Source of the DNA: Escherichia phage Murica
Sequence record: NC_041871.1
Length of the DNA stretch: 64,000 nt
Reading direction: 5' to 3' (one strand)
Shown here: positions 2,921 to 10,022 of the stretch, piece after piece
Layout: every line of letters starts with the position of its first letter
How positions within the stretch are numbered: the first letter of the stretch is position 1
Program-made: the position numbers and the translations under genes
Notes under the pieces: model-generated
Database searches by the model: none
Seen by the model: only the letters and a program-made list of their open reading frames with translations
Told to the model about the DNA's origin: nothing

Positions 2921-4105
2921 TTAAGCTTTAGCCAAAATGGCGCTAAACTCTTCACCAAACTCTTTTACAATCTTCATCAGGTTTGGGTATGCTTTGATCA
3001 GCTGAGCAACAATCTTGTCACGCCCTTTACCGATAAGCAAGGCATTTCCTAAGGCATTAGGTTTCATCATCGCCATAAAGACTGAGAATACAAAATCTCG
3101 GTTCTCGTCCTTGAAGTTTTCCCAAAGGAAATCGAGGAAGTTTGCCACGCAGCTGACAAGATCTTCGTCTGAGATACTTGCATTTTCCATCATATTGCGA
3201 ATAGCGATACAACCTTCAGATCCAAGAATCCACAAAATGTCTGGCTGCTTAGGACCTACGTATTCTTTGCAGCCACCTGCCATAATCCGACCGATTTCCG
3301 GTAAATTACGTTTCTTGGTGTGGTAAGTCCAGATCTCTACCGCTGCAGTGTGACCAATAGCACCTTGTAGAAGAACACGGGCCATAGCGTCAGAAATAAT
3401 ACCGCTGTCAAAATCGTGCAAGATGTCAGATGCAGCAACCCAAGATCGTGGTGTGGCAAAAGATGGACAATTAATCTCAGCCATAGCCTCATAATTATCA
3501 ATAGCTGATGGAACTCTTTTCAGATACCCAATTACAGAGGAGTGAACCCCGTTGAGGAATGCGTAGTCCTCAATAAACACCTCTGCATTGCTTGTAACCT
3601 CTACAATGATAAAACGGTTAGCCAGAGGGGCTTCGAGCGCCGAAAGAACCGCACCATCTGTAGAACGGTTACCCGCAGCCACAAAAACAGAACCCTTAGG
3701 GAATGCATAGGTGCCGCACTTGTGGTCAAGCATAATTTGCATTGCAACCTTTTGCAGGTAGTTATCTGCATGAGTGAGCTCATCCAGAAAGATAATTCCG
3801 CTCCAGTCAGGATCCGCAGGCCAAAATTCTGGAATTGCAAACACTGTACGTGTAGTTCCATCCGCTTCTACAGGGATAGGTAGCCCAGATAAGTCGGCAG
3901 GATCTTTATCTGACAGTCGCACGTCAACAAGGTTGTCATCTCGCTCACCGAACATATTATCAGCGATCTGCTTCATCACCTGGCTTTTACCCACACCCAT
4001 TGGTCCCAAAATTAGGACAGATCGGCTATGACGTTGGGCAAACTGAATAATAGCTGGCAACTCACGGACAGTGATTTGACCACTTTCGAATACGTTTCTT
4101 GACAT
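2921..4105 (-). CDS. AAA+ ATPase, MoxR/CbbQ/CobS-like (AAA_5-type)
   Basis: Walker A GPMGVGKS, Walker B IIFLDEL, sensor-1-like VAAGN. 394 aa. Confidence 0.7.
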   Translation of the reverse strand: MSRNVFESGQITVRELPAIIQFAQRHSRSVLILGPMGVGKSQVMKQIADNMFGERDDNLVDVRLSDKDPADLSGLPIPVEADGTTRTVFAIPEFWPADPDWSGIIFLDELTHADNYLQKVAMQIMLDHKCGTYAFPKGSVFVAAGNRSTDGAVLSALEAPLANRFIIVEVTSNAEVFIEDYAFLNGVHSSVIGYLKRVPSAIDNYEAMAEINCPSFATPRSWVAASDILHDFDSGIISDAMARVLLQGAIGHTAAVEIWTYHTKKRNLPEIGRIMAGGCKEYVGPKQPDILWILGSEGCIAIRNMMENASISDEDLVSCVANFLDFLWENFKDENRDFVFSVFMAMMKPNALGNALLIGKGRDKIVAQLIKAYPNLMKIVKEFGEEFSAILAKA

Positions 4106-4801: not shown

Positions 4802-5059
4802 TCAGTCCACCTCTTCTTCTCGTTGTAGTTCAAGATACCCGTAGGTCTGGACATCTTGAAGGGTGTGGAACTCCCCCTCTGCCGCTAAGGCACGAACAAC
4901 TTGGCACAAAACCTTATGAGGAACTTCATCCAAACCTAGATTCAGTGCAGGAAACACCTTATCTAAGTCAACAAAATAAACGAACTGTAGCTCACCAGCT
5001 TCAAAAGGTGTATCTTCAATAAACATCTTCTCGGCATTAGTCAAGATCTGCACTTTCAT
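4802..5059 (-). CDS. hypothetical acidic protein, 85 aa
   Basis: ORF, tightly packed; acidic C-terminus (QREEEVD). Confidence 0.4.
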   Translation of the reverse strand: MKVQILTNAEKMFIEDTPFEAGELQFVYFVDLDKVFPALNLGLDEVPHKVLCQVVRALAAEGEFHTLQDVQTYGYLELQREEEVD

Positions 5060-5415
5060 TATTCTACCTCCTCTTCTTTTTCTTCGGCATTAGTTTCATG
5101 GCTACCCCACTCGGGAGTTTCCACCTCGATAGTAAACTCACGCACTACACGGTAATTGCCCATGAAGCGCTCTACTTCGTCAAGGCTTATGGAGAGGCCA
5201 TTGGCAACCAGGTCTGCAGCACCCTCTTCTACCAGGTAGTCCAGATTGGCTTCCAGAGCCTCAGGTTCAAACCCTGTCAATGCAATCAGATAACCTTCCC
5301 CTTCATCAGGGAGGACAATACAGCCCAATTGATTTTCTTTAAAAAGGCAGTGACCATCATTATTGATTGGGTGTTCATTGCAGTAAATAGCTGCACGATA
5401 AGTAACTTTAGACAT
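5059..5415 (-). CDS. hypothetical highly acidic protein (start trimmed to MSKVTYRA)
   Basis: Track ORF 5059-5436. ATG at 5413-5415 has GGAG 9 nt upstream and sits inside the 29-bp repeat. Strongly E/D-rich with a poly-Glu C-terminus. Confidence 0.45.
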   Translation of the reverse strand: MSKVTYRAAIYCNEHPINNDGHCLFKENQLGCIVLPDEGEGYLIALTGFEPEALEANLDYLVEEGAADLVANGLSISLDEVERFMGNYRVVREFTIEVETPEWGSHETNAEEKEEEVE

Positions 5416-5420
5416 CGGTA
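5392..5420 (-). repeat. 29-bp exact repeat, copy A (inverted relative to copy B at 7254-7282), spans the start codon
   Basis: Reverse complement of 5392-5420 equals 7254-7282 (TACCGATGTCTAAAGTTACTTATCGTGCA). Confidence 0.9.
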
Positions 5421-5707: not shown

Positions 5708-6603
5708 ACCCTCGCATAAATTAAACTTGTATCAGTATACTTCTTTAATGGGTAAATATCCTGTCCATAGATGCAATCATTAAACACCTCATCTACCCAA
5801 AGGCTACACTTATATCCCATCATTTCTAAAACACCCATCTCTTCTTCGGTAAACTTATCACCGCTCTTGCAAGATGTCAATACCTCATTCTGAACTCTTG
5901 CTACCTCGAAGCGGTTATTGGCAATATCGCTATTGGCGATCAAATACTCACCTAGAGGGTGTGCGGCATTAAAGATGCACAGTGGACGGCTGACGTAATA
6001 GTCTCCAGGTGTATAAAAATTGTTGAGGTCTTTCACTAGAACATTCTTATCAGTCACTTCATTTATAACATCATGCATATCGCACATCTTTATATGTTTG
6101 AGGATTCCATCCCCCATCACAAAATAAAAACTTGCTGAGACACTTTCGGCATAGATCTTACTAGATCCGTTGTAGTTGTATTTTACTCGGATGCTAACGG
6201 GGGTTTTTCCTGTCGCGTTAGCCATCATCCAAAGAAATGGCAGCTCATACTTCTCCTCTGAGGAAACAAAAGGTGAGGTAGCCAGAGATCGAAAACCTCC
6301 AGAGAAGTTGAAAGTTACAGAACCGCTCCGGCGGTATGATACCGCGTATTCTACTTTTATATCGACATACCCATTGGAATAGGTGTGTCCTTCATTATCT
6401 AAATATGTCCACTTATCAGACCCAGATACCAATCTACGCTCAATAACCTTCATCACTATAGGAATTAATGGGTTGGTACAAACCGCTTTTGAAGTAGCTT
6501 TATCATCTAAAGCCTCGTAAATTGCAGAAAGGATGTCCCCAGCTGAAAGATTGGTTGTTATGTCCTGTTTCCACCGCGTACTAAAACTGTTAAGATTTGC
6601 CAT
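5704..6603 (-). CDS. hypothetical protein, 299 aa (first gene of the minus-strand accessory operon)
   Basis: ATG at 6601-6603 preceded by AGGAG; sits directly downstream of the minus-strand promoter. Confidence 0.5.
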   Translation of the reverse strand: MANLNSFSTRWKQDITTNLSAGDILSAIYEALDDKATSKAVCTNPLIPIVMKVIERRLVSGSDKWTYLDNEGHTYSNGYVDIKVEYAVSYRRSGSVTFNFSGGFRSLATSPFVSSEEKYELPFLWMMANATGKTPVSIRVKYNYNGSSKIYAESVSASFYFVMGDGILKHIKMCDMHDVINEVTDKNVLVKDLNNFYTPGDYYVSRPLCIFNAAHPLGEYLIANSDIANNRFEVARVQNEVLTSCKSGDKFTEEEMGVLEMMGYKCSLWVDEVFNDCIYGQDIYPLKKYTDTSLIYARV

Positions 6604-6643
6604 AAGTAAGTGCTCCTATGTTAGTTTTCTTTCGAATGGGTGC

Positions 6644-6672
6644 ACTATATTGTGGAGTTAGAGTAAAGTCAA
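6644..6672 (-). promoter_or_regulatory. sigma70-like promoter, TTGACT-N17-TATAGT, minus strand
   Basis: -35 is reverse complement of 6667-6672, -10 is reverse complement of 6644-6649, 17-nt spacer; about 40 nt upstream of the 6603 start. Confidence 0.55.
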
Positions 6673-6685
6673 CACGTTTTTGATG

Positions 6686-6714
6686 TTGACATCTGTTGAG
6701 ACAATTGATACGAT
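6686..6714 (+). promoter_or_regulatory. sigma70-like promoter, TTGACA-N17-TACGAT with TG extended -10, plus strand
   Basis: TTGACA at 6686-6691, 17-nt spacer, TACGAT at 6709-6714 preceded by TGA; upstream of ATG 6746. Confidence 0.5.
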
Positions 6715-6745
6715 TTCTTCACTTACAGAGCACGAGAGACGACTC

Positions 6746-7723
6746 ATGAATCTTGAAAAATATTATACACCAGAAGAGTTAGAGCGCTTGCTCAAAAAAT
6801 ATAGACGCAAACAGAATAACGCACGGAAACGAGATATAGAGTTCGACCTGTCATGGGAAGAATACCTCCTATTTGGTAAAAAACTTTTAGGAGATGGAGT
6901 ATGCGACTATACCCTTATACCTTTTGACATGCACACAGATGAAAACGGGCTGGGGAATCCTTTCTACCCATCCCTGGAGCGGATAGATGATGAAGGTCCT
7001 TATGCGGTTGATAACTGTTGTGTGGTGGGATTGAGATGCAACTCTCTAAAGGACTGTCTGGTAGATAAAAAGACTGCAGTCTTGATTAAAGACGAAACTG
7101 ATCGAAAAATTGTCCAGCAGATGATGCTCCACCTGAGCGAAGAGCGTATGGAGAAATTGAAAGGTGATTATACTTTTGAAGATTTCATCTTGCAATATGG
7201 AACGGAAGAGGATAAACTAGCACTCTTTGACGAAGAAGAGGAGGAAGATATGCTACCGATGTCTAAAGTTACTTATCGTGCACCCAAGAAGCACATTTCC
7301 GACATTGTAAACGAGCCTATCACAGAAGAGATTGAAGAAATGACGCAACAGGTGCATGAAGAGGAAAAAGAGACTCAGGAGGTCGAAGAGGAGCTTACAG
7401 AAGAGGTTCCTGCACTACCTGATGATGTTGAGATTGCCAAAGCTTACACTTTCTATTGTCAAACGTTCTACGATGTAGGTATGAAAGTTGATCTGTCGTT
7501 CAGCCAATTTAAGAGTTCGTATATTCGCAAATGCTGTGCTTTAACTGGTGAACGTCTTGGAGCTGGACTTAAACCCCTGTTGGTGACCGACTGGAATAAA
7601 GGTTTCACTAAAGGAAACTTTATGGTAGTATCTCCAATTATGGAGAAAGCTATGACAGATCTTATGAAGACCACCCGCATGACAATGACCGAGTTGGCAG
7701 GTATTTTCAAACACGTTAAATAA
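6746..7723 (+). CDS. hypothetical protein with an internally duplicated Cys-containing domain and an acidic linker
   Basis: Track ORF starts at TTG 6680 inside the promoter; re-called to ATG 6746 (GAGAG upstream). Both halves share the pattern D-x-x-F/L-x-x-S ... G-x-Y ... N-x-x-V. Contains copy B of the 29-bp repeat internally (…MLPMSKVTYRAP…). Confidence 0.5.
   Translation: MNLEKYYTPEELERLLKKYRRKQNNARKRDIEFDLSWEEYLLFGKKLLGDGVCDYTLIPFDMHTDENGLGNPFYPSLERIDDEGPYAVDNCCVVGLRCNSLKDCLVDKKTAVLIKDETDRKIVQQMMLHLSEERMEKLKGDYTFEDFILQYGTEEDKLALFDEEEEEDMLPMSKVTYRAPKKHISDIVNEPITEEIEEMTQQVHEEEKETQEVEEELTEEVPALPDDVEIAKAYTFYCQTFYDVGMKVDLSFSQFKSSYIRKCCALTGERLGAGLKPLLVTDWNKGFTKGNFMVVSPIMEKAMTDLMKTTRMTMTELAGIFKHVK
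7254..7282 (+). repeat. 29-bp exact repeat, copy B
   Basis: Identical to the reverse complement of 5392-5420; encodes the same peptide MSKVTYRA. Confidence 0.9.
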
Positions 7724-7727
7724 TGAC

Positions 7728-7744
7728 AGGGGCCAATGGCCCCT
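7728..7744 (+). promoter_or_regulatory. intergenic hairpin AGGGGCC-AAT-GGCCCCT
   Basis: Perfect 7-bp stem immediately after the TAA at 7721-7723 and before the RBS (GGAG) of the next gene. Confidence 0.4.
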
Positions 7745-7756
7745 TCTGGAGTTTTA

Positions 7757-9217
7757 ATGGATAGCAGAAGTTCAGAAATCATTGCCTCTCAGAAAGATGA
7801 TGCCCTGAGAATGTTGCAGGCTGCACGTATGTATCTCCTTGAAAAGCTGCCGTTTTATGGCACACTACTGTCAGGGTTGCAGTTCGTAGAAAACCACACA
7901 TGGTGCTCCACCATGGCAACCGACCATAAACGCATCTATTACAGTCCTGAGTTCATTATGGGATTGGCTGATGAACGCAAGGCTATTCTTAAGGCTTCTC
8001 TAACTGACGAGCAGTTTGAGATGGCTGAAGTTTTCTATTCCCCAAAATCTGTGAAAGAGGTGGCCTTCCTTCTGTCACATGAGGTGGGGCATATTATCTG
8101 TGATCACCTAGTCCGTGGTAAAAGCTTTGAGCCGGAACTGTTCAATATTGCTTGTGATCACGTTATCAACACAGGCCTTGTGGTTGACTTTAGCAAACCT
8201 CCTTGTGTTTTCTTCCCGAAGGGGAAAAGCACTACGTTCATGAAAGGTAAGCCTTTTGGCTTCTTAGCCAGCTGCTACTGCGACATGAAGTTTCATGGAT
8301 GGATTGCTGAGAACGTTTATGCAGTTCTTGATAAGCAAAGAGATCAGAATAACGGTAAAAGTAAGAACGGTAAAGGTGAGAACTCTCAAAGCGATAAGCG
8401 ACAAACCGATGATCACATGAGTGGGAACGGTGGCACCAGTGATAATCTTGGAAAGGCTATGGGGTATGATCAGCCACAACCTGTAATCAGCCAATCTGAT
8501 AAAGATCAGGCCATGCAGGACTCTGGTGATATGCTGGAGGCAGCAATGCAAGCGTCCGGAGGCCGTTGCCCTGAGGCGGTGCGTGAGTTTGTCAAGAACA
8601 GAGGTAAGCCTGTAATCAACTATATAGACATCATTAAGCAACGTATGTTGTCTAAAAGAAAGGCCGAACTGACCTACAGAAAACCTGGTCGCCGATCTGG
8701 GTCTTTGACCAGCACAATGCGAAAAGTTGGGGCTATAAACAAGAACCAGCACGTTATTGTTCCTGGTCGTAATCCGGAAAACACTATAGATATTGTGGTG
8801 GCTTTAGACGTTTCTGGCTCGATCTCTCAAAGAACTTTAAAGAAAATGTTCAATGAAATCACCGGATTGTGCAATCTGTATAAAGAGTTTAAGGTTACAA
8901 TGTTCTGTTGGTCAACTGAGGTTGGAGAGGTTAAAGTATACACTCGCGGCAACATAGACGAGATGGTCAACTATGAGGTCCACTCAACATGGGGCACAAC
9001 AGCTGCTTGCGTGTTCGAGTATCTGGATGCCAACATACCTAATGCAAAAGATGTCATCGTCCTGACCGACCTATACTTTGAGCATAACTTTGAACAAAAG
9101 GTTGTTGACAACAAGTGGAAAAAGTACGATACTCTATGGGTCCTCACTAAGGGGTATAATAAAAATTATATCCCGAGCTTTGGGAAAACTGTGGAATTAA
9201 TCGAGTACGCTAAGTAA
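7757..9217 (+). CDS. vWA-domain protein with N-terminal HExxH metallopeptidase-like domain (DUF2201-like, usual partner of MoxR ATPases)
   Basis: HExxH in LLSHEVGHIICDHL; MIDAS-like DxSxS in VALDVSGSIS. Start re-called from 7736 (inside the hairpin) to ATG 7757. Confidence 0.6.
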   Translation: MDSRSSEIIASQKDDALRMLQAARMYLLEKLPFYGTLLSGLQFVENHTWCSTMATDHKRIYYSPEFIMGLADERKAILKASLTDEQFEMAEVFYSPKSVKEVAFLLSHEVGHIICDHLVRGKSFEPELFNIACDHVINTGLVVDFSKPPCVFFPKGKSTTFMKGKPFGFLASCYCDMKFHGWIAENVYAVLDKQRDQNNGKSKNGKGENSQSDKRQTDDHMSGNGGTSDNLGKAMGYDQPQPVISQSDKDQAMQDSGDMLEAAMQASGGRCPEAVREFVKNRGKPVINYIDIIKQRMLSKRKAELTYRKPGRRSGSLTSTMRKVGAINKNQHVIVPGRNPENTIDIVVALDVSGSISQRTLKKMFNEITGLCNLYKEFKVTMFCWSTEVGEVKVYTRGNIDEMVNYEVHSTWGTTAACVFEYLDANIPNAKDVIVLTDLYFEHNFEQKVVDNKWKKYDTLWVLTKGYNKNYIPSFGKTVELIEYAK

Positions 9218-9232
9218 GAGAGGAGGTTATTT

Positions 9233-9496
9233 ATGGCAACAGAGTTAAAATTTGCATCAAACCGTAAAACTAAGAAGTATCTGTCCTCAGTAGCTCCAGG
9301 CACTGTGGTGATGTTTGTTGATGAACTTGGGGATGTGAATACAGCACTTGTTGTAAAATCACATCCTGCAAACATATATGTTGGGGTATTTGACCTGTTC
9401 AGAAAGGTGTTTGTAGAACTGCCTCACAGTTTGGTTGTTACAGAAATGGATGCCTGCATAGAAATTCTTGGCGAAGTTATGGTGGAGGAACAATAA
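9233..9496 (+). CDS. small protein, tandem paralog 1 of 4 (87 aa)
   Basis: AGGAGG RBS; shares MAT…K…GTVV…V.K…FDL…LP…VTE.D..I.ILGE with paralog 2. Confidence 0.5.
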   Translation: MATELKFASNRKTKKYLSSVAPGTVVMFVDELGDVNTALVVKSHPANIYVGVFDLFRKVFVELPHSLVVTEMDACIEILGEVMVEEQ

Positions 9497-9759
9497 TGGC
9501 TACCAGCATTGTATTCAATTCTAAGGTGAAGAACAAAAAGCGTGCAGACAGTTTTCCGTGTGGGACCGTGGTAAGTTGCGACGGAGACGGCATTCAAAAC
9601 ATAGTTATGATTGTCAAAACAGGAGAACATTGTGTGTGGGGGTTCGATTTAGAAAATAATGAGTTGTACGATCTGCCGCCAAACATGAAAGTTACAGAGC
9701 TTGACACCAAAATTACCATCCTTGGAGAGACAAGCTATTCAAAAGAAGGAGGAGAATAA
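9496..9759 (+). CDS. small protein, tandem paralog 2 of 4 (87 aa)
   Basis: Start overlaps the upstream stop; alignable to paralogs 1 and 3. Confidence 0.5.
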   Translation: MATSIVFNSKVKNKKRADSFPCGTVVSCDGDGIQNIVMIVKTGEHCVWGFDLENNELYDLPPNMKVTELDTKITILGETSYSKEGGE

Positions 9760-10022
9760 TGACCACAAAAATCACTATCGCAGAACCGAAAGCTAACACT
9801 CAGCCTATCGAAAAGTTTAAGTGCGGTGAGGTGGTAACATTCACACCAGATAATGAAGATGCTAAGATTTTCGCAATGGTCACAGCTGAGTGGATGTGTG
9901 ACAACACCACACAGGTTCTGCGTTTTGACACCTATCTTACCGATGAAATCAGGAACGACAAGATTGTGACTGGTGTGGATACTGAGATTGTTTTCTACAA
10001 GAGCTTTTTAGAGGGTTTCTGA
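9759..10022 (+). CDS. small protein, tandem paralog 3 of 4 (87 aa)
   Basis: Start overlaps the upstream stop; KCGEVVTF and RFDTYL regions align with paralog 2. Confidence 0.5.
   Translation: MTTKITIAEPKANTQPIEKFKCGEVVTFTPDNEDAKIFAMVTAEWMCDNTTQVLRFDTYLTDEIRNDKIVTGVDTEIVFYKSFLEGF

Follow-up and report, generated by a model that had tools for sequence, protein, structure and literature searches.

A predicted PacI-type ββα-metal domain in two diverged tandem copies, the second degenerate, in an early-region protein of rV5-like phages

The gene at positions 6746..7723 (+ strand) of the 64,000-nt stretch of Escherichia phage Murica DNA analysed here (NC_041871.1; hereafter, the window) encodes two diverged tandem copies of one domain of ~95 residues. 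The coding sequence comprises 325 amino acids plus stop, and the same coordinates are annotated in related GenBank records. Structure prediction and alignment place the domain in the ββα-metal (His-Me finger/HNH) fold, and within it in the PacI type, with an Arg at the His position and a Tyr on the Ω-loop. To judge from the residues conserved in the family, the complete PacI-like constellation is retained in the N copy alone. The protein would most likely function in host takeover, as a nuclease or nucleic-acid-binding protein that has one active site.

Internal duplication

The first-pass annotation, made from the letters of the DNA alone, had described an internally duplicated Cys-containing domain, and this description was borne out, at the profile level only. 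When the two halves were compared directly (residues 1-161 vs 219-325), BLASTP returned a non-significant E value of 1.6, and with shallow profiles, built from 8 close homologues, the duplication was again non-significant (hhalign E 0.38). The C domain alone, searched against PHROGs and Pfam, matched its own family phrog_3118 only and zero N-type PHROG families. Detection of the duplication signal required ~56 diverse relatives.

A profile of the C-terminal part, searched against 1.84 billion cluster representatives, returned 72 proteins, mostly of 230-350 aa and with the domain at their C-terminus. Re-scored locally, the C-domain profile also matched the N-terminal domain in many relatives, in a constant register (25 bits in P0060, 16 bits in P0084 and 11 bits in P0075). 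In intermediate relatives such as P0060 the repeat is visible by eye, as it is in P0075, where 'CDYTGIAF...SIERIDDTKGYHTWNTCVVSARVNVLK' can be set against 'CAVTGKTF...QIVRIDTSKGWTSDNVRALTLFAHGML'.

Separate profiles of the N and C copies from 56 two-domain relatives aligned with each other over 81 columns (hhalign probability 97.3%, E 2.7e-11), in a register that pairs residues 14-108 with 229-309; reversed-sequence controls gave E 0.17-0.23. The full-length family profile compared with itself showed the corresponding off-diagonal match (227-308 vs 12-107, probability 96.4%, E 1.3e-9). Sequences outside both alignments behaved in the same way: the C-domain profile reached 23.7 bits against T4 Srd, at residues 22-86, and a profile of the N half of the T4 Srd family (29 proteins) matched the C-domain profile with a probability of 96% and E 3.3e-9.

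The predicted structures of the two repeats, each with pLDDT >95, agree in the succession of their secondary-structure elements, which in each is helix, strand, helix, two short strands, β1, loop strand, β2, helix. Taking secondary-structure register as a proxy for superposition, we found the DSSP state in the AlphaFold model to be equal at 69 of the 81 positions in the hhalign register. A lack of fold similarity between the halves, which the first-pass annotation had named as the observation that would tell against its proposal, is thus not what we found.

The non-significant BLASTP and shallow-profile results, and the failure of the C domain alone to match any N-type PHROG family, are what one would expect if the likeness of the two halves were due to chance or convergence rather than duplication. 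We nonetheless regard that explanation as extremely unlikely, in view of the profile-profile E value of 2.7e-11 vs 0.2 in the reversed controls, the independent T4 Srd profile (E 3e-9), the intermediate sequences and the agreement in secondary structure. As judged from the family alignments, the duplication is ancient and family-wide.

The residue pattern that the first-pass annotation had seen in both halves survived in part. The shared Cys (C53/C264) is kept in 55 of the 56 N copies and in every one of the 56 C copies. The first block of the pattern (DIEFDLS / KVDLSFS), on the other hand, proved to be two residues out of step with the profile alignment, and the 'Y' and 'N-x-x-K' elements are missing from the C copy, in which F287 stands for Y86 and E300/M303 stand for N99/K102. 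We found no report of a tandem duplication with an inactivated second copy in the searchable literature.

Fold and active-site residues of the two copies

With a shallow alignment, AlphaFold gave an unusable model (pLDDT 48); a 58-sequence alignment was used instead, yielding an AlphaFold2 model with a mean pLDDT of 88.8 and a pTM of 0.57. When this model was submitted to Foldseek, PacI was ranked at the top, followed mostly by Cas9 HNH domains, McrA, Gme HNH, Hpy99I and EndoVII. A search of all PDB sequences with the family profile returned PacI alone, with a score that is marginal by itself (E 0.24, 17 bits), and the single sequence retrieved only noise from the PDB (Arl5, σ28, E>1). The PacI motif VDRSDSFEGYSPQNARLACFICNRIK aligns without gaps on LERIDDEGPYAVDNCCVVGLRCNSLK, with identical spacing. 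Taken together, the model and the alignments argue for membership in the ββα-metal fold.

PacI (PDB 3ldy/3m7k) belongs to His-Me finger group 20 of Jablonska et al. 2017. Its catalytic His is absent, the role being performed by a Tyr of the Ω-loop (PMC5714182), and the one metal ion it binds is coordinated by an Asp and an Asn (PMC4081073).

The N copy of the phage protein (residues 9-108, 6770..7069, + strand) contains an intact active-site constellation of this kind. With PacI residue numbers counted from the alignment, E78 (codon 6977-6979) corresponds to D92, R79 (6980-6982) to R93, Y86 (7001-7003) to Y100, N90 (7013-7015) to N104, N99 (7040-7042) to N113 and K102 (7049-7051) to K116. These positions are almost invariant among the 56 two-domain relatives, which share only ~20-35% overall identity: E78 is Glu in 53 (and Asp in the other 3), R79, Y86 and N90 are kept in all 56, and N99 and K102 in 55 each. 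The N copy is therefore His-less in the PacI sense, since Arg occupies the His position and Tyr the position of the PacI loop Tyr in 56/56 sequences, and both predicted metal ligands, E78 and N99, are in place. A region of four helices follows the N copy (residues 111-168, 7076..7249, + strand) and measures ~50 aa across the family.

Some features of PacI have no counterpart here. In the alignment with PacI, both of its Cys4 zinc sites are absent from the phage protein. Only C53 is conserved; it matches the leading Cys of the CGYCG element in PacI, which here reads C-D-Y-T-G, with T56 in place of the second Cys. At position 98, a Cys occurs in the rV5 clade only. The metal ligand is a Glu, where PacI has an Asp, and the N domain carries a net charge of -4, i.e., it is not basic. 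Moreover, PacI is a bacterial restriction enzyme and a homodimer of identical subunits, unlike the product of this core early phage gene, which carries both copies, the second predicted to be inactive, on a single chain.

The C copy (residues 226-325, 7421..7720, + strand; pLDDT 95-98) is a degenerate duplicate of the domain followed by a terminal helix. Its structural residues are well preserved in the 56 relatives (C264 in 56, T267 in 50, G268 in 44, D282 in 46 and N291 in 51). At the catalytic positions, T281 and D282 take the places of E78 and R79, F287 that of Y86, and E300 and M303 those of N99 and K102, so that neither the Tyr nor the metal ligands are present. Across the family, the equivalents of E78 and Y86 are mainly hydrophobic (V, F, L or I at the Tyr position), the equivalent of R79 is Asp, and those of N99 and K102 are mostly Q/G/A (also E) and L/M, respectively.

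In the Vequintavirus-like set, mean pairwise identity is 79% for the N copy, 79% for the C copy and 36% for the linker between them, a pattern which indicates that both copies are under equal purifying selection. Because the C copy is as conserved as the N copy, we take it to be a maintained pseudo-enzyme domain and not a decaying sequence. The earlier suggestion of a two-module nucleic-acid-binding or endonuclease-like protein is supported by these comparisons, with the refinement that the putative catalytic constellation is preserved in the N copy only and that the C copy is degenerate.

Pseudo-dimeric or single-site nucleases are known to arise by duplication with one dead copy. The phage protein resembles them in having a tandem duplicate of a catalytic domain, one copy of which is devoid of the catalytic residues yet conserved. 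It differs from them in the relation between the copies: although the individual domains were predicted with high confidence, the model did not predict that the two pack against each other in a fixed manner, as a PacI-like pseudo-dimer would (pTM 0.57), and the linker is long and disordered, which suggests that the copies are loosely tethered modules.

Structural matches of the model in BFVD include proteins of 360-480 aa from Fadolivirus, Medusavirus, Pandoravirus, Pithovirus and Tupanvirus. These matches span ~140-330 columns, most of them 280-330, and the giant-virus proteins may also have more than one PacI-like domain.

Genomic setting and distribution

On the + strand, this gene comes first after a divergent intergenic region of 142 nt (6604-6745). 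A sigma70-type promoter-like site, TTGACA-17-TACGAT with an upstream TG, lies at 6686..6714 (+ strand; a consensus match only, 10/12), 32 nt 5' of the ATG at 6746. This predicted site is consistent with the first-pass reading of the gene as the first after a plus-strand early promoter. On the opposite strand, at 6672-6644, TTGACT-17-TATAGT is a near-consensus match to the same type of promoter, and in phage Gotham PhagePromoter predicts sites equivalent to both divergent promoters. The two sites (6644-6714) stand back to back, with both -35 boxes in the arms of a 23-nt palindrome at 6668-6690 (GTCAACACGTTTTTGATGTTGAC); the palindrome could be a shared operator, or just the consequence of mirrored -35 hexamers.

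Many metagenome gene calls give a 346-aa version of the protein, which starts at ATG 6683. Since that ATG falls inside the predicted -35 hexamer, the promoter assignment favours the start at 6746 and hence the 325-aa product.

The window comes from an rV5-like coliphage of the genus Vequintavirus, and its positions 6000-9300 share 99.8% identity with Shigella phage CM1 and with many Escherichia phages. At least 80% of this 3.3-kb locus is covered at an identity of at least 90% in 115/117 Vequintavirus records, and the position of the gene was identical in the records of the genus that we inspected. The homologue in the Seunavirus 4MG, at 39% identity, likewise heads the genes on one side of a divergent junction; an 11/12 promoter match is found 40 nt upstream, the same VWA protein comes next and MoxR lies on the opposite arm. 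A rightward series of small genes also begins with the homologue in Vibrio phage VnaP, again at a divergent junction. From these comparisons, we take the gene for a core early gene with a conserved position, preceded by a predicted host-type promoter. In the searchable literature we found nothing relevant on rV5 early transcription, nor any experiments with the gene.

PacI-like HNH genes of other phages have been interpreted as free-standing homing endonucleases (PMC12724721), and some records of the present gene carry the label 'HNH endonuclease', so that one might think of a selfish mobile gene which cuts related phages that have no copy. Such an element should be present sporadically among close relatives and inserted between core genes, which is not the distribution observed. 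The near-universal presence and conserved position, extending to 4MG, point instead to a vertically inherited core gene, and both domains are under purifying selection. We thus regard the homing reading as highly unlikely.

Overall, tblastn identified homologues of the gene in 250 phage records, and the 325-aa protein matches phrog_3118 over its full length (E 6.5e-113). Database labels range over anti-sigma factor, HNH endonuclease, anti-termination protein, type II restriction endonuclease and hypothetical protein. Databases had already recorded the gene and its likeness to HNH enzymes, and PacI-like HNH genes of phages had been noted in PMC12724721. Scans of the whole protein, of T4 Srd and of the intermediate sequences with Pfam, NCBIfam and PADLOC gave no meaningful family, and neither Pfam nor NCBIfam has a model for the PacI/Srd-type domain family. 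A search of the 64-kb window for paralogues of the domain found none. For >200 phage genomes, the four or five contradictory names can now be replaced by a testable description, that of a tandem PacI-type module with a putatively inactivated second copy, and a curated domain family would mend many annotations.

Several neighbouring features deserve mention. The gene for a MoxR-type AAA+ ATPase (~2921-4105, - strand) and the gene at 7757-9217 (+ strand) lie on opposite arms of the divergent early region. The product of the latter combines a DUF2201_N metallopeptidase domain with a VWA-like domain, and its PHROGs label, 'HNH endonuclease', looks wrong. MoxR and VWA proteins commonly act together. 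Farther downstream, three abutting ORFs (9233-9496, 9496-9759 and 9759-10022), each of 87 aa, have similar N termini (MATELKF / MATSIVF / MTTKITI) and a common G-x-VV motif, and look like a small early gene triplicated in tandem.

A GC-rich hairpin, AGGGGCC-AAT-GGCCCCT, is located at 7728..7744, 5 nt past the stop codon and before the VWA/metallopeptidase gene. It has a 7-bp stem with 6 G-C pairs and an AAT loop, without a good T tract on the + strand, and might act as a terminator or an RNA-stability element. The hairpin overlaps the ATG at 7736 listed for the next ORF; the start given in GenBank for LL12 corresponds to window position 7757.

T4 Srd, possible functions and the acidic linker

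The N copy matches the N half of the T4 Srd family (hhalign probability 99%, E 2.3e-18), and its PHROG matches, phrog_1400 and phrog_4592, carry, among others, the labels 'Srd anti-sigma factor' and 'decoy of host sigma70'. In the Srd family itself, the PacI-type positions are occupied by E64, R65, Y72, N76, N85 and R88, without variation among 29 sequences, although descriptions of Srd go no further than an RNase E activator or anti-sigma decoy. Neither this invariance nor a statement assigning the Srd domain explicitly to the PacI type (His-less, Tyr) was found in the searchable literature. To our knowledge, T4 Srd is a textbook host-takeover factor whose fold is not known.

T4 Srd (AAD42557, 248 aa) and the protein described here have in common the N-terminal ~95 residues with the E-R...Y...N...N..(K/R) signature, and both are encoded by early genes of large virulent enterobacterial myoviruses. 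They part ways thereafter. Srd has no C copy, a second domain copy having been sought in its C half and not found, and its C-terminal 150 residues match neither the helical region nor the linker of the phage protein; when Srd residues ~100-248 were compared with the N-copy and C-copy profiles, no similarity emerged (hhalign E ~0.2). Because the C half of Srd matches neither copy, the two proteins share a domain in different architectures, and the two-copy protein is not an Srd orthologue.

The resemblance to Srd also accounts for the label 'anti-sigma factor', which nothing in our analysis supports and which we disfavour. That the protein acts as an anti-sigma factor or a σ70/σS decoy, sequestering or mimicking sigma to redirect RNA polymerase, is suggested by transitive GenBank and PHROG labels only, traceable to the T4 record for srd, which says merely 'postulated decoy'. 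No search returned a significant match to a sigma or anti-sigma protein, and we judge this function very improbable.

With modest confidence, we lean toward an early host-takeover nuclease with one PacI-like, Tyr-dependent active site, in which the C copy would be a pseudo-nuclease. According to this scheme, host RNA polymerase would make the protein at once after infection, for action in host takeover. In the N copy, E78 and N99 would bind a divalent metal, R79 and K102 would hold the phosphodiester, and Y86, as base or nucleophile, would cut host nucleic acid. The C copy may fill the place that the other subunit has in a PacI-like homodimer, or else bind a partner or target. As there would be a single active site, the expected product is a nick or one-strand cut and not a double-strand break; and given the homology between the N copy and the N-terminal half of Srd, the target may be host mRNA turnover via RNase E, not DNA.

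This scheme has weak points: the lost zinc sites, the marginal sequence link to PacI, the non-basic N domain and the pTM of 0.57 all count against it. In addition, the sole experimental function in the wider family is the activation of a host RNase by T4 Srd and not nuclease activity. Qi 2015, as cited in PMC13232886, PMC7430671 and PMC9409239, has T4 Srd associating with the N-terminal half of RNase E and speeding host mRNA decay. Stimulation of RNase E has been shown for T4 Srd only.

The protein could be a non-catalytic, Srd-like adaptor that binds the catalytic N-terminal half of RNase E, stimulates it and speeds host mRNA decay. The 'active-site' residues would then form a protein- or RNA-binding pocket, and the C copy would provide an extra binding surface. 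Homology of the N copy to the N half of T4 Srd (probability 99%, E 2e-18), the PHROG matches to Srd families, the published function of Srd and the like early-gene setting all fit such a role, but the C-terminal half of T4 Srd shares nothing detectable with the protein, and the constellation of metal-ligand, Tyr and phosphate-binding residues, invariant in both families, exceeds what a simple adaptor would need. We therefore hold the adaptor, and with it the binding-pocket reading of the conserved residues, to be possible but less probable than the single-site nuclease; the two explanations are not exclusive.

A bolder proposal, which we put forward as distinctly unlikely, is that Srd-type domains, including that of T4 Srd, are active Tyr-dependent ββα-metal nucleases and that the two-copy proteins are obligate single-site pseudo-heterodimers making single-strand cuts. 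If this were true, early single-strand cuts would leave 5'-phosphate ends in host RNA or DNA. In the case of RNA, such ends would feed the 5'-monophosphate sensing of RNase E, which would explain the reported 'stimulation of RNase E' by Srd. The intact PacI-like signature of T4 Srd in any case raises the question of whether 'RNase E activation' involves catalysis by Srd. The main value of the comparison is that it corrects a widespread annotation and offers a concrete hypothesis on T4 Srd and related proteins that point mutants could test.

Between the two copies, the Glu-rich linker noticed in the first-pass annotation is indeed present, at residues ~161-224 (7226..7417, + strand), with a net charge of -18 and 36% D/E. 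In the AlphaFold model, pLDDT is <50 at residues 177-201, and the means of ten-residue blocks range from 44 to 64 over residues 171-220. Across the family, the spacer varies from 4 to 67 aa with a median charge of -2, and the long, strongly acidic form is confined to the rV5-like clade. Since length and charge vary so widely, we dropped the idea of a conserved functional element, e.g., a DNA mimic; the acidic linker is best read, from the family comparison, as a flexible tether, a clade-specific variable spacer and not a defining feature.

Within the linker, a 29-nt patch at 7254..7282 (+ strand), encoding LPMSKVTYRA, is identical, in inverted orientation, to positions 5392-5420. The latter contain the leader of the minus-strand gene 5059-5415 together with its first 8 codons (MSKVTYRA), so that the two segments form a perfect 29-nt inverted repeat. 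The patch has been copied in frame from the gene start into the linker, which tolerated it, and is flanked by the microhomologies ACCnATG and ATCGTGCA; phage rV5_ev158 retains the ancestral linker. This arrangement suggests a recent, short ectopic gene conversion.
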